Shown here one piece after another: positions 4,454 to 50,252 of a stretch of DNA of 64,000 bases. Position 1 is the stretch's first letter; each line of letters begins with the position of its first letter. The DNA comes from a virus (Duplodnaviria; Caudoviricetes), in IMG/VR virus record IMGVR_UViG_3300050146_000027, positions 11,133 to 75,132 of that record, one strand, 5' to 3'. Position numbers and translations under genes: made by a program. The notes under the pieces are model-generated. The model was not told where the DNA came from, did no database searches, and saw only the letters and a program-made list of their open reading frames with translations.

Positions 4454-4822
4454 TTATTTGACGATCTCAACGATAAAGTTGGGATGTTTCCCTTTCCATC
4501 GTTTGATGGCAGCTTCACAAGCCTTGCGTGTGGTAAAGCATTGCTGGGCTCTGTTGTCGTAGCACCAGCCACGAATACCCAGGTCACCTGGGAAAATGAC
4601 AGAACCACGATCATCAATCTCCATGACTGCCCCAAAATAGAGCTCAGAGTCACTGATCTGATTTGCTGATACAGCCCTCCAGTAATCGTTTTCACGAGCA
4701 CTGATGCGGATGCAGACCGCAAAGTTTTTGCCCCCGAGGGTCTTTCTCGAATAGCCTGGGATGAAGGCAAGAGCACCTGGCTTGAGTGTCTTCTTGCTGT
4801 GGGTTGTTGAGCGGATTGGCAT
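4454..4822 (-). CDS. Hypothetical protein
   Basis: 122-aa ORF in the early operon. Confidence 0.55.
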   Translation of the reverse strand: MPIRSTTHSKKTLKPGALAFIPGYSRKTLGGKNFAVCIRISARENDYWRAVSANQISDSELYFGAVMEIDDRGSVIFPGDLGIRGWCYDNRAQQCFTTRKACEAAIKRWKGKHPNFIVEIVK

Positions 4823-5322: not shown

Positions 5323-5461
5323 GTGGGAACTTGCCATTGATCCAGTTGGTCACGTCATCCCAGGCCATGCGGCACAAGATGCACAGAACAAAGATAGGAC
5401 CCCAGGCCATGATGGTTGCCATCAAGAACAGCCTGAGAAGGACTTTTTGTTTCTTGGTCAT
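5315..5461 (-). CDS. Small membrane protein (48 aa)
   Basis: MTKKQKVLLRLFLMATIMAWGPIFVLCILCRMAWDD...; one hydrophobic segment; manual translation. Confidence 0.5.
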   Translation of the reverse strand: MTKKQKVLLRLFLMATIMAWGPIFVLCILCRMAWDDVTNWINGKFPPT

Positions 5462-10290: not shown

Positions 10291-11882
10291 TGACCGCTCT
10301 CATCAAACAAGACTTGGATCTGTGGTTGGATCAAGTCAACTACGCAGACATCAACAGCTCGTTGTATCTGCCGTCTGAGTTTGCACTGACGTTCATGAAC
10401 TTCATCAAGTTGGTGAACGGGAGCCAAGGAGAAAGCAACAAGACTCCTGCAGTTCACTTGAAGATGCTGGACAAGGTTGTGGGTCCAAGCGACTACATTG
10501 CCAACCTCTGCTTTCGTGGTGCAGCAAAGACCACGCTCTTCATGGAATACTTCAGTCTGTTCCTTGGAGTATTCCACTGTCTGCCAGGATTCGGTGCTAT
10601 TGATGGGATGATCTACGTCTCAGACTCTATGGACAACGGCGTCAAGTCAGCACGGAAGAACATTGAGTTCCGCTACAACAACAGTGAGTTCTTGCAGCAG
10701 TGGATTCCGGAAGCGAAGTTTACTGACGCCTACATCGAGTTCAAGAACCGATCGGGCGAGATGCTGGGCATCAAGATGTTCGGTGCCAAGACCGGTCTGC
10801 GGGGTACGAAAATCTTTGGCAAGCGCCCTGTCATTGCCATCCTTGATGACTTGGTGAGTGATGATGACGCCAACTCCAAAGCGGCCATGAGCACCATCAA
10901 GGACACGGTCTACAAGGGCGTGAACCATGCACTGGATCCAACCCGTCGCAAGGTGATTTTCAACGGCACTCCGTTCAACAAGGATGACATCCTGATCGAA
11001 GCGGTTGAATCTGGTGGCTGGGATGTGAACGTCTGGCCAGTCTGCGAAAGGTTTCCATGCAGCCGAGAAGAGTTTGTCGGTGCTTGGCCAGATCGATTCA
11101 GCTACGACTACATCCAAAGTCAGTACGAGCTGGCTGAGAAAACCGGGAAGCTGTCTGGTTTCTACCAAGAGCTCATGCTTCGCATCTCGTCTGAGGATGA
11201 GCGCCTTGTGCAAGATGCAGAAATTCGCTGGTACAAGCGGGCGCAGATCCTCAGCAACAAGGGGATGTACAACTTCTACATCACGACTGACTTTGCCACA
11301 AGCAAAAAACAGACCGCCGATTACAACGTGATCAGCGTTTGGGCCTACAATGCCAATGGCGATTGGTTCTGGGTAGATGGTATCTATGTTCGTCAGACCA
11401 TGGATCACACGATCAACGATCTGTTCCGGCTGGTGCAAGCGTACCGACCACAGCAAGTAGGCGTCGAGATCACAGGCCAGCAGGGTGCTTTCATTCAGTG
11501 GCTTCAGCAAGAAATGCTGAGTCGGAATATCTGGTTCAACTTTGCCAGCTCCGAGAAAAGCAATGAGCCCGGCATTCGTCCTTCTGTTGACAAGCTGCAG
11601 CGATTCAACCTTGTTGTCCCTTGGTTCAAGACCGGCAAGATGTACTTCCCTGAAGAGATGCGGCAAAGTACCATCATGGGTGCGTTCATGCAGCAGATTC
11701 GTTTGACCACGATGTCTGGCATCAAAGGCAAGGATGACTGCCTGGATACCATCTCGATGCTCGGATACTTGAAACCCTGGAAGCCGGCCGACGCTGTACC
11801 ATTGAGTCAGCGTGACGATGGCGTCTGGGAACCAGATGAAGAAGAGGCATCGCCGTCTGCTTTGTCTTCCTACCTTGTGTGA
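10290..11882 (+). CDS. terL: Terminase large subunit (gp68)
   Basis: Walker A-like CFRGAAKTT, Walker B ILDDL, nuclease YITTDFATS and GKDDCLDTISM. Confidence 0.95.
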   Translation: MTALIKQDLDLWLDQVNYADINSSLYLPSEFALTFMNFIKLVNGSQGESNKTPAVHLKMLDKVVGPSDYIANLCFRGAAKTTLFMEYFSLFLGVFHCLPGFGAIDGMIYVSDSMDNGVKSARKNIEFRYNNSEFLQQWIPEAKFTDAYIEFKNRSGEMLGIKMFGAKTGLRGTKIFGKRPVIAILDDLVSDDDANSKAAMSTIKDTVYKGVNHALDPTRRKVIFNGTPFNKDDILIEAVESGGWDVNVWPVCERFPCSREEFVGAWPDRFSYDYIQSQYELAEKTGKLSGFYQELMLRISSEDERLVQDAEIRWYKRAQILSNKGMYNFYITTDFATSKKQTADYNVISVWAYNANGDWFWVDGIYVRQTMDHTINDLFRLVQAYRPQQVGVEITGQQGAFIQWLQQEMLSRNIWFNFASSEKSNEPGIRPSVDKLQRFNLVVPWFKTGKMYFPEEMRQSTIMGAFMQQIRLTTMSGIKGKDDCLDTISMLGYLKPWKPADAVPLSQRDDGVWEPDEEEASPSALSSYLV

Positions 11883-40704: not shown

Positions 40705-40732
40705 AAAAAGAAAAGCCCCCGAAGGGGCTTTT
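40705..40732 (-). terminator. Intrinsic terminator
   Basis: AAAAGCCCC-TTCG-GGGGCTTTT plus a further T run on the minus strand. Confidence 0.8.
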
Positions 40733-40750
40733 CACACTGCCGATCGGAGA

Positions 40751-46553: not shown

Positions 46554-46612
46554 GGAACACTCCATATTAAATTGAAAGACCGCAGCCCAGAGAAAGAGCT
46601 GCGGTCTGGGGG

Positions 46613-47318: not shown

Positions 47319-48053
47319 TTAGCCCATTGCTTTGATGACACATCGTCGGATTTGTTCTTCAGATGCATCGATTGGGATCCCGATCTCTTCACACCATGTT
47401 GGCCAGAAAATGGAGAGCTCGCCTCCAAGTTTGACTTCATCGTGCTGGATGTCGGGATGGTCCTGCCACTGCACAGCCTTCACGAGGTGCTCATTGGTGT
47501 ACATGACTGCATTGATGTCATCGCGGACAAGCATGTACTGGGCATCGTGGATGTGGGCACATGGCCGGATGTCGAGGCGGTGTCCTGACTTGCGGACACC
47601 ACCCATGAATTCTGCACTGGCTCGGCTGTTCAGTAAACACCAAGATTGGCCAAGAGCATTGCCGGCCGTTCGACCTTCTGCCTCAGCTTCATAGGGTGTT
47701 TTGCTGTTGCCTCTGATCACTTGCTTGAGCAAGGGTGTGCGAAGACGCAGACCAAATGCTGCAGTGATGTAGCCATCTTTCGAGGCCTGATCAAGCTTGG
47801 CCTGTACCCAGGCATCACTAATCTTGTAGAGCTCGTGATACCTGGCTTCCACCATCAATGCCTTCTCTTTGGAGAAGCCGCAATTCTTGATCAGAGTGAT
47901 GTAGGTTCCCTGGTAGGTCAGTGCAAAAGTGGGTGCTTTGCTGTCCTGACGTTGTGGCTTGTAGAGGTCCTGGATCGAGTTGATCTCAGCGACGTTAAAG
48001 TCTCGCAATGGAACCTCCTCTATCTTGGCTCCAGGCTTGAGTTGAATTTGCAT
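47319..48053 (-). CDS. Family A DNA polymerase, C-terminal part (motifs B and C)
   Basis: RQDSKAPTFALTYQG (motif B), RTAGNALGQS, IHDAQY (motif C); own RBS GGAG and ATG. Confidence 0.9.
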   Translation of the reverse strand: MQIQLKPGAKIEEVPLRDFNVAEINSIQDLYKPQRQDSKAPTFALTYQGTYITLIKNCGFSKEKALMVEARYHELYKISDAWVQAKLDQASKDGYITAAFGLRLRTPLLKQVIRGNSKTPYEAEAEGRTAGNALGQSWCLLNSRASAEFMGGVRKSGHRLDIRPCAHIHDAQYMLVRDDINAVMYTNEHLVKAVQWQDHPDIQHDEVKLGGELSIFWPTWCEEIGIPIDASEEQIRRCVIKAMG

Positions 48054-48065
48054 GATTGCTCCGAT

Positions 48066-48095
48066 AAAAAAGCCGCCCACATTTCTGTAGGCGGC
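48066..48095 (-). terminator. Strong hairpin plus U-run between the polymerase halves
   Basis: GCCGCCTACA-GAAA-TGTGGGCGGC-TTTTTT. Confidence 0.75.
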
Positions 48096-48101
48096 CCCCC
48101 A

Positions 48102-50252
48102 TCATGAAGTGAAATGGTCTTCCACGTTCATGACAGTACCATCTGGCAGGGCGACAGTATCCCCTTCCACCAGATAGATCACTTCGTCACCTTGGGTGAC
48201 ACGAAAAGCTTTCACACTTTCCACTTGTCGGATCAAAGGCATCTCTGAACCAAAGTAGGCATAAGCACGCAGGCTGTGGCCGTCGTAGCCGTCGGTGTAA
48301 ACCTTCAGCTTGTTCGGGTCCTTTGTTGTCAAGGCACTGATGCGGTCTTCGAGAGATGCGAAGTCCAAACCACAAAACAACCATCCAGGTGGTGCTTGGA
48401 AGCAGCTCTTGATGAGCTTGCCCAAATGGAGCTTGCCTTTCTTGATGAACTTGCCAGCTCCCATGGATTCCAGCAACACCAGCACAGCAGCCACCAGCGC
48501 AACCTCCACGTTGGCAGGGAGGTTCTGCAGGTTTGGTTCACTGGAACTGAGTCGACCAGACAGAGTCCCACCAAGGTTGAAGTTGCCGAACAAGTAGTGC
48601 CAGCCGTCAGGTCCGAGAGCAGCATTTTTCATCGCTGGGATGAATGATGTGAGGATCTTGTTCACTGCACCGTAGTCCAGCATGGCTGCAAGGAACTCTT
48701 TCACCTCGGGAGTCTTGGCGTGGTTGACCAAGGCTTCTAAAGTGTCACGATCAACTGAAGGTTGTTTGCTGGCTGTCAACCCAATGACAGGCATTCCCAG
48801 AATTTCAAACAAGATCTCTTGCAGTTGCGGGCCTGAGTTGGGATTGAAAGTGATTTCAGTGCGAATGGCCTCAGAGGTTTGGCTTGCAGCTAACATCTCT
48901 TGAACAGTCATTCGCTTTTTCTTCCACTCCTTGTTTTTTTCCTCAGTGAATCGTTCGAGTCGGGTGTACTCGTACTCCTGAATCAGCTTGCATTGATGGA
49001 TCGTATTCAGAGCATGGTCGTAGACCACGGTCAGAATGCTCTCTACTTTGAGAACCTGGTCCATGCTGAGTGGCAGGCCAGTCAACTGCATCTGGATGAT
49101 GTCAGTCGTCGCTGGCTTGAACAGACTTTGGTACACGTTCAGCTGCTGATCGTTGACCATCGTTTGGTAGTGTTTTTCATGCACATACCATGTGGAGAGG
49201 GCATCGACCAAGTTGTACCGCAAGAGCTTTGGCAAAGGTATCTTTGTGATGTCCTTGATGTCATCGTCGTTCATCGCGTAGTTGCCAGAATACTCTTGAG
49301 ACTGGTCTTTGAGACCGAGCTTGTTACCAGCGCAGCTGTTGGTGGCCAAGTAGGTGATCAGCTTGGTGTCGTCCCAGCATCGCAGCATCACGTCGATACC
49401 TTCGAGCAAGCCTTCTGTGTCCAATAGATCTTTCATGTAGAGCTGATAGATCAACACGTACACGTCGAAGCTGATGTTGTGCCAGATCATTTGCTTGAGG
49501 TAGCGATTGAAAAAGTCTTTCAGCAGTGCACGCACAGGCCCGTTACGGGCGTTGCGCCCATACGGTGCTTCGGTAGCATCTTCGATCGGCTCGTAGTCTA
49601 CCGCAAAGGCAATGCCCTCGTGCTTGTTCCAGGCCAGTGCAATGCTGCCAATGCCGGCCTTGTGGTGCTTTAGATCGAAGGCTTCAATGTCGGCTGTGAA
49701 ATCCACATTCATAGCCAGCAGCTTCTCCAAAGCAGCAGCGATCTCAGTTGGTCCGGATGGGTACTCTTCGTACTTGATGATGTCTGTGCCTGGTGCTTGG
49801 TAGCTGCCGGCAACGTGATCAAGCAGAGCGTTTATGCCCTGCTTGATCTTTGCACGAACCTTTTCAGGATCGTAGAACACAGCCCGGTAGCTTGGAACGT
49901 AGACCACCTTCCAAGGACCAAACACGCAGTCCATCATGTAGCCAAGATTTGCCTCAGTCTTGGCAGACTTTGTCAGTACCTTGAAGTAGTCGCTGTCGGC
50001 AACGATCAGGTACTTGGCCTGGCTGTCCTGGAGCACAGGCACCAACTCGCTTTTGATGAATTGCTTCATCTCTTCGGCTGGCGTCTTCTTTTTGGTCTGA
50101 GAGTAGTGCAGATCGCAGATCAGCACATCATCTTCTGGGATACCAAAAGGAGTGAGGTATTCCTTTTGGATCTCATCCTTACGGATGGTGGGGACCAGAA
50201 ACACCAGTGGGTAGGTGACCAGATCTTGTTGTGAGTAGAACAGCTGTCTCAT
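48102..50252 (-). CDS. Family A DNA polymerase, N-terminal part (UDG-like region, 3'-5' exonuclease, motif A)
   Basis: ADIEAF (ExoI), IWHNISFD, YNLVDAL, GTLSGRLSSSEPNLQNLP, GLDFASLEDR (motif A). Confidence 0.92.
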   Translation of the reverse strand: MRQLFYSQQDLVTYPLVFLVPTIRKDEIQKEYLTPFGIPEDDVLICDLHYSQTKKKTPAEEMKQFIKSELVPVLQDSQAKYLIVADSDYFKVLTKSAKTEANLGYMMDCVFGPWKVVYVPSYRAVFYDPEKVRAKIKQGINALLDHVAGSYQAPGTDIIKYEEYPSGPTEIAAALEKLLAMNVDFTADIEAFDLKHHKAGIGSIALAWNKHEGIAFAVDYEPIEDATEAPYGRNARNGPVRALLKDFFNRYLKQMIWHNISFDVYVLIYQLYMKDLLDTEGLLEGIDVMLRCWDDTKLITYLATNSCAGNKLGLKDQSQEYSGNYAMNDDDIKDITKIPLPKLLRYNLVDALSTWYVHEKHYQTMVNDQQLNVYQSLFKPATTDIIQMQLTGLPLSMDQVLKVESILTVVYDHALNTIHQCKLIQEYEYTRLERFTEEKNKEWKKKRMTVQEMLAASQTSEAIRTEITFNPNSGPQLQEILFEILGMPVIGLTASKQPSVDRDTLEALVNHAKTPEVKEFLAAMLDYGAVNKILTSFIPAMKNAALGPDGWHYLFGNFNLGGTLSGRLSSSEPNLQNLPANVEVALVAAVLVLLESMGAGKFIKKGKLHLGKLIKSCFQAPPGWLFCGLDFASLEDRISALTTKDPNKLKVYTDGYDGHSLRAYAYFGSEMPLIRQVESVKAFRVTQGDEVIYLVEGDTVALPDGTVMNVEDHFTS

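Follow-up and report, generated by a model that had tools for sequence, protein, structure and literature searches.

Genes that are broken into pieces by homing endonucleases are a known theme. According to the "fractured genes" model, an invading endonuclease gene brings along the stop codon, a signal that ends transcription and the new methionine, and it may be lost again at a later stage (Dassa et al., 2009, PMC2677866). The nrdA-mobE arrangement of Aeh1 and the split gp43 of T4-like phages are cited as related cases in the same work, and in the N4-like Vibrio phages JA-1 and VchO139-I a DNA polymerase split by an HNH gene has been described, and an intron was proposed for it (Fouts et al., 2013, PMC3670811). 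Here we analyzed a stretch of 64,000 nucleotides (in the following the window; positions 11,133 to 75,132 of the IMG/VR virus record IMGVR_UViG_3300050146_000027, which comprises 75,132 bp and is rated 100% complete), in which a DNA polymerase gene is interrupted by a UGA stop codon followed by a strong hairpin. We regard it as likely that two separately started chains rebuild the polymerase, that the break is a mobile cassette, which is free of cargo in the window, and that the reading frame shared by both halves is accidental. Two features of this arrangement were not found described, namely a conserved pair of peptides at the break (a tail on the N-terminal half and a head on the C-terminal half) and the reuse of the break as a gene slot. 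The two-chain family A polymerase family, which is common in environmental N4-like phages, is apparently undescribed as well.

The elements of the locus are listed below; N-half and C-half are the two parts of the polymerase and L004 is the locus of the closest relative.

48102..50252, minus strand: DNA polymerase N-half, 716 aa plus UGA, with the N-terminal region, the thumb and the palm with motif A; PHROG 17
48342..48365, minus strand: motif A (DFASLEDR), the final catalytic motif before the break, placed by alignment with intact relatives and Pfam coordinates
48105..48236, minus strand: junction tail of about 44 aa, an insertion absent from intact polymerases, with four modelled beta strands and a short helix
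48102..48104, minus strand: UGA stop codon of the N-half
48066..48095, minus strand: hairpin of 10 bp with a GAAA loop, followed by U6, in the form of an intrinsic terminator
48059..48062, minus strand: GGAG Shine-Dalgarno sequence of the C-half, 5 nt before the ATG, conserved in L004
47319..48053, minus strand: DNA polymerase C-half, 244 aa plus stop codon, with the fingers with motif B and the palm with motif C
47985..48053, minus strand: junction head of about 22 aa, absent from intact polymerases, with one modelled beta strand
47907..47951, minus strand: motif B (RQDSKAPTFALTYQG; RQDSKAPTF...) in the O-helix region, placed by alignment with intact relatives

The N-half starts with the ATG at 50252 and its last codon ends at 48105, and the C-half starts with the ATG at 48053-48051, is coding down to 47322 and has its stop codon at 47321-47319. 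The Pfam domain DNA_pol_A is distributed over both genes: the N-half accounts for profile positions 13-199 with 90 bits and the C-half for positions 199-303 with 33.6 bits, a score just under the cut-off of 34.3 because the domain is only partly present there. The Pfam coordinates and the alignment with intact relatives confirmed that the break lies between motif A and motif B, as proposed in a first-pass annotation of the DNA letters, and the break site is a surface loop of the fingers. The separate ribosome-binding site which had been assigned to the C-half is also present (GGAG, 48062-48059).

Judged from sequence and model, both halves together appear to make up one complete family A (Pol I-type) DNA polymerase. 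Residues 440-977 of the read-through translation, modelled with AlphaFold2 (mean predicted local distance difference test, pLDDT, 83), have the palm-fingers-thumb fold of Pol I and match Bst Pol I, Klenow and Pol theta with Z scores of about 20 and 336-360 aligned residues (Bst Pol I: VIA Z 20.5, root mean square deviation 3.5, 336 aligned; Klenow: Z 19.6). A comparison of the window with L004 revealed that 148 of the 187 substitutions in the N-half and 67 of the 81 in the C-half are located at third codon positions (about 80% in both) and therefore both halves are under purifying selection and maintained as coding sequence.

The alignment with intact relatives contains about 75 extra positions exactly at the break, corresponding to the tail, the head and a spacer of 16 codons. 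The presence of extra terminal segments had been recognized in the first-pass annotation, but the sizes given there, about 40 and 16 aa, differ from the roughly 44 and 22 aa that we measured. Tails of about 44-50 aa end every split N-half and fall into several sequence types of one alignable family (alignment A10), homologous heads of about 22 aa start every split C-half (alignment A12), and across the split relatives the type of the tail pairs with the type of the head. AlphaFold2 places four strands (model residues 243-248, 251-256, 260-262 and 268-270) and one helix (271-277) in the tail with a pLDDT of 85-94 and one strand in the head (304-308; pLDDT about 94), and the spacer peptide is modelled as disordered (pLDDT <50). 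We assume that the strands of the tail pair with those of the head as a small beta-sheet clasp, through which the chains would associate. In this way two polypeptides, each made from its own start and each with one extra peptide at the break, could together rebuild one family A polymerase. One of the two options in the first-pass annotation was a polymerase of two chains that assemble through their new termini, and this option is supported by the retention of tail and head in all split relatives and by the confidently modelled strands. A complex prediction of the tail (N-half 650-716) against the head (C-half 1-45) with their own alignments gave 0.21 and 0.23, with the mark at 0.32, which is no evidence either way. 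The tail profile found 83 representatives among 1.84 billion proteins at E<=0.001, and those checked were polymerase N-halves, fragments of N-halves or unrelated repeat proteins that match the profile partly. With this profile no further tail came up at other places of the window or of the fetched loci.

The break is common in metagenomes. Among the 5.8 billion clustered proteins that were searched, many of the sequences most closely related to the N-half had a length of 664-722 aa and not of about 880 aa, 1604 proteins of 134-427 aa were found as relatives of the C-half (E<=0.001), and about one third of 80 related viral loci are split. The break was not found among 50,697 deposited phage genomes, in which tblastn of the junction and the tails gave no match. 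The synteny of the replication module and the closest polymerase relatives identify the source of the window as an N4-like phage (Schitoviridae). The best matches of the N-half are Schitoviridae DNA polymerases with 57-62% identity (N4, phiEaP8 and Achromobacter phages), and the cultured relatives in this range of identity have a single polymerase gene of 870-900 aa in all cases. The module consists of a Dda-like helicase, an unnamed gene, the DNA polymerase, two unnamed genes, an exonuclease and a primase, all on the minus strand, and the identical order is present in Sinorhizobium phage ort11, Rhizobium phage RHph_X2_28B and Erwinia phage phiEaP8.

A second break site is located 20-odd residues (about 25) upstream, after KLKVY, and has a homologous tail together with its own type of head (L044 4364-5146; P0006, P0023, P0028, P0053, P0071 and P0076; P0148-P0234 with heads of 61-70 aa). 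In the single-gene polymerases P0103, L098 and P0144 a shortened tail is fused directly to the head, and in P0144 a fused site-2 module occurs together with a site-1 head. The 73-aa protein P0314 starts like the C-part of JA-1 and ends in a site-1 tail, which suggests that it is a middle piece and that the polymerase may occur in three pieces in a JA-1-like lineage. Furthermore, the frame of the C-half breaks again inside motif B, after ...PTFALT, in L030 (~5330-5400), L078 (~4720-4800), L102 (~2870) and L143 (~3620), which could be a further intron or insert.

The content of the junction differs between the split loci, with a gap of 10 nt to 2.2 kb between the halves. The 48-nt gap of the window has no open reading frame, and there is no endonuclease gene between the halves. 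Eight loci contain NUMOD4 and HNH_3 homing endonucleases in the gap (L019, L028, L030, L078, L101, L102, L109 and L143), and the HNH reading frames reach into the last part of the tail and the first part of the head. Tad2-like proteins (PF11195) are encoded in the gap of seven loci (L051 4527-5264, L069 4410-5030, L070 4521-5024, L073 4533-5036, L077 4542-5006, L078 3611-4075 and L079 4685-5161) and Acb2/Tad1 hairpin-domain proteins (PF24729) in two (L061 4730-5200 and L071 4531-4731). These genes are tightly packed with the polymerase halves, in marine-type relatives, and it seems that the split site acts as a slot for anti-defence genes. In three to four further cases the gap harbors a class II (B12-type) ribonucleotide reductase of about 650 aa (L033 4503-6494, L037 4601-6544 and L041/L042, with L041 4554-6497); a hairpin with a U run directly after the stop codon of the N-half precedes the reductase genes.

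In a tree of the shared N-terminal 660 residues the five states (intact, split at site 1, and split at site 2 with three tail types) are interleaved, even inside the clade of the window with at least 75% identity. As far as about residue 645, sequence P0002 shares 90-100% identity with the window; beyond this it continues as the sequence of P0012, a polymerase with only about 70% identity elsewhere. The switch is located about 25 residues before the junction and P0002 continues into a different tail type. The patchy distribution of split state and tail type and the sharp recombination boundary indicate that the junction behaves as a mobile cassette. Homing elements leave behind this kind of scattered occurrence with a co-converted flank, and an origin of the cassette by homing would be in line with this. 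Tail, head and the content between them probably act as one mobile cassette that targets this polymerase gene. In relatives the cassette contains an HNH homing endonuclease of the I-HmuI type, or its place is taken by genes for anti-defence or for a ribonucleotide reductase. The window would then represent the cargo-free form, reduced to the stop codon, the hairpin of terminator type with its U6 and the ribosome-binding site. A group I intron was considered and rejected, as 48 nt are too short and the flanks are conserved as protein.

The 48-nt gap indeed holds the 10-bp GAAA hairpin and the U6 that had been noticed in the first-pass annotation, as confirmed by coordinates and folding. The 5' arm (48095-48086), the GAAA loop (48085-48082) and the 3' arm (48081-48072) form 10 bp including one G-U pair, and the T6 at 48071-48066 follows directly after the 3' arm. 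In a context of 86 nt the minimum free energy is -32.6 kcal/mol (z = -4.6), and none of 200 shuffled sequences was as stable. Between the window and L004 the hairpin is identical in 24 of 24 nt, whereas the other 24 nt of the spacer carry four substitutions and one indel, and therefore the structure is under selection. Hairpins of unrelated sequence are located directly after the N-half stop in ten loci, six of them with a U run (window, L004, L088, L090 and the reductase-carrying L033 and L037) and the others without (L089, L018, L021 and L011). L089 shows compensatory changes in the stem around a conserved loop compared with L018 and L021, and there is no hairpin where a cargo gene follows the stop codon within about 10 nt. 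In L101 and L109 (~2853-2872) a hairpin within the 5' end of the HNH gene keeps its stem, with the loop UUGC in one and GCAA in the other. Taken together, the comparison of these loci argues that the hairpin is conserved as a structure.

With regard to its role we lean slightly towards an attenuator in the sense of a leaky intrinsic terminator, which the two-chain option of the first-pass annotation had also proposed and which is plausible, or a 3'-end element or stabilizer. A scan for consensus terminators did not pick up the hairpin of the window, probably because its G run pairs with the U run. One alternative, which we consider unlikely, is a hairpin-type promoter for the phage RNA polymerase that would provide the C-half with its own transcript; another role, or none at all, takes the remaining probability. 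The N4-like phage LUZ7 has middle promoters in the form of GC-rich hairpins that lie about 15 bp ahead of the start site, with stems of at least 6 bp and loops of 3-4 nt, and the same phage has many leaky, stage-dependent terminators (bioRxiv 10.1101/2022.03.18.484859). The hairpin of the window is located about 20-30 nt before the ATG of the C-half, which would suit a promoter, but in L011, L018 and L021 the distance from the hairpin to the start of the C-half is at least 100 nt, and a U run directly after the stem, kept in six of the ten hairpin loci, is the classic arrangement of a terminator. Two further strong hairpins are present on the gene strand of the replication module, one of classic terminator form with a T run (40710-40733, minus strand) and one without a T run at a gene junction (46577-46607, minus strand). 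In the minimum-energy fold of 48051-48107 (minus strand) a lower stem joins the region of the stop codon to the GGAG in front of the C-half, an arrangement by which the translation of both halves could be coupled. We rejected such a coupling since the pairing of stop region and GGAG is not conserved, being not predicted in L004.

The second option of the first-pass annotation was a read-through of the UGA stimulated by the hairpin that would lead to one enzyme of about 977 aa; we considered an insertion of tryptophan or selenocysteine at the UGA together with it. The observation behind this option is correct: the distance from 50252 to 48053 is 2199 = 3 x 733 and therefore the halves are in the same frame, with 16 codons without a stop between them and a stable hairpin a few nucleotides past the UGA. 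The AlphaFold2 model of the read-through chain also folds as a normal polymerase. However, a stop-free spacer in the same frame is expected by chance in about 1 of 6-7 cases (1/3 x ~0.46), so that the open shared frame alone is not beyond chance. In contrast to the window with its T6, the closest relative, represented by the contigs L004, L086 and L087 from two samples (96% amino acid identity; 91% nucleotide identity for L004), has a T5 after the identical 24-nt hairpin, so the C-half is in another frame. For a broader comparison of frames we used 28 non-redundant loci split at the site of the window, 11 of them with a gap of less than 200 nt. Among these 11 short-gap loci the frame difference of 0, 1 and 2 occurred in 3, 5 and 3 cases, and the window is the only one of the 28 loci with a stop-free spacer in the same frame, as the other 13 same-frame loci carry 1-26 stops. 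Furthermore, the N-half ends with TGA in 18, TAG in 5 and TAA in 5 of the 28 loci, the peptide sequence of the spacer is not conserved in relatives, and the C-half has its own GGAG-ATG, which is conserved across relatives. The frame is thus not conserved across split homologs, the outcome for the frame that the first-pass annotation had named as incompatible with a read-through, and the switch appears to be refuted by these frame data. Its remaining probability is very small, and nothing suggests that the hairpin acts on the ribosome at the UGA. A selenocysteine insertion sequence (SECIS) was rejected based on the frame data and on the hairpin, which judged from its sequence has no bulged U and no loop features of the bacterial elements. 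We therefore assume that the shared stop-free frame would be an accident of the 48-nt spacer.

The possibility that tail and head are a working split intein, by which the halves would be ligated through protein trans-splicing, has to be weighed in the light of some resemblance. In a comparison of the tail profile with the whole PDB the best match was the split intein of Aes123 PolB1 (PDB 9hth; E 0.003, best single stretch 12.9 bits), and this match covers a GDT..G....E motif on its residues 8-26 that is similar to intein block A. Among the 50 nearest VIA structural neighbors of the low-confidence model of tail and head (pLDDT 56), 17 are inteins (Z 2.0-4.1), and an N-part, a homing endonuclease and a C-part follow each other just as in "fractured genes". 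On the other hand, the smallest Hint domains have about 125-135 aa and tail and head with about 66 aa reach roughly half of this size. In the alignments A10 and A12 there is no conserved nucleophile at position 1 (Cys/Ser), no TxxH block, no terminal His-Asn and no Cys/Ser/Thr at position +1, and the Cys of some tail types is an Ala in the window. Neither a Hint nor an intein family was found by Pfam at E<=10 in 58 tails and heads, the head profile had no match in the PDB, Foldseek with the module model found nothing at E<=0.001, and no intein-bearing polymerases or longer forms of at least 1254 aa were found, which is weak evidence. The statement of the first-pass annotation that intein signatures are absent is therefore correct for the catalytic residues, but overlooks the weak resemblance to block A in the tail. 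The sequence data make a working intein very unlikely. It is conceivable, although we would not count on it, that tail and head are the relic of a shrunken split intein which has lost splicing and is kept as a portable non-covalent clasp, by which a homing cassette could divide an essential polymerase without a lethal effect and open a protected slot inside the gene for anti-defence or reductase genes.

A decaying pseudogene or an assembly artefact with a non-functional polymerase, suggested by a stop within an essential gene of a metagenome-derived record, has hardly any probability at all, since dozens of contigs and samples that are independent of each other show this architecture, purifying selection acts on both halves, the start and the ribosome-binding site of the C-half are conserved and the record is rated as complete.

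Several points weigh against the two-chain polymerase with its mobile, cargo-free cassette and accidental frame. For this phage, the association of the chains and the termination at the hairpin are predictions from the genome sequence and from models. The pairing of tail and head is deduced from predicted secondary structure and its confidence only, and the module of both folded alone reached the pLDDT of 56 mentioned above; a tail-only alignment was used for this fold because MAFFT placed the heads on tail columns or vice versa. Furthermore, four of the ten hairpins have no U run, the two short-gap marine relatives L074 and L075 have no hairpin, and a terminator between two subunits that are needed in equal amounts would be counter-intuitive. 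Finally, loci in the same frame are slightly over-represented (14 of 28, with about 9 expected; P ~0.05, the loci not being independent). This excess includes loci with kilobases of cargo between the halves, and it could go back to an insert that was in frame at first or could result from the dependence of the loci.

The frame comparison removes the tempting but wrong regulatory story of a read-through switch. If the peptides of 44 and 22 aa hold the halves together, they would be a small protein-complementation pair from nature, which makes them interesting for protein engineering. In addition, the junction peptides could document how selfish elements make the breaking of a gene tolerable, perhaps as the last stage in the decay of an intein. 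The junction as a recurrent landing place for anti-defence genes is also a useful marker for the mining of phage counter-defence.

Compared with known systems, the domain set of the endonucleases in the relatives (NUMOD4, HNH_3 and the I-HmuI NUMOD-like domain) is that of the I-HmuI-type HNH endonucleases of SPO1-like phages. The target of I-HmuI is the family A DNA polymerase gene of SPO1-like phages, which is the same kind of target as here. However, the I-HmuI-type enzymes are located inside self-splicing group I introns, whereas the flanks are translated in our case. Aes123 PolB1, the best PDB match of the tail profile, is a split phage DNA polymerase too, but it belongs to family B and has a full Hint domain that splices, whereas the peptides of the window have half that size and lack every catalytic residue. 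The polymerase of JA-1 and VchO139-I is closer with respect to the phage group, as an N4-like polymerase is encoded in two open reading frames with a NUMOD4/HNH_3 endonuclease between them. In contrast to the window, the break is inside motif A (559 + 332 aa) and the ends have neither tail nor head and resemble intron-exon borders. According to the sequences, the JA-1 split is a different event from that of the window.

The "fractured genes" share several features with the locus described here. In both cases an essential replication gene is present as two adjacent genes on the same strand, which in relatives are separated by a homing endonuclease gene. The insert has at its ends the stop codon, the signal for the end of transcription and the new methionine, and endonuclease-free derivatives exist. 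Differences concern the target, which is the family A polymerase of N4-like phages here, the ends of the insert, which encode a conserved non-splicing pair of tail and head instead of a split intein or nothing, and the slot, which is reused for anti-defence genes and ribonucleotide reductase. By this analogy the window fits the endonuclease-free stage of "fractured genes".

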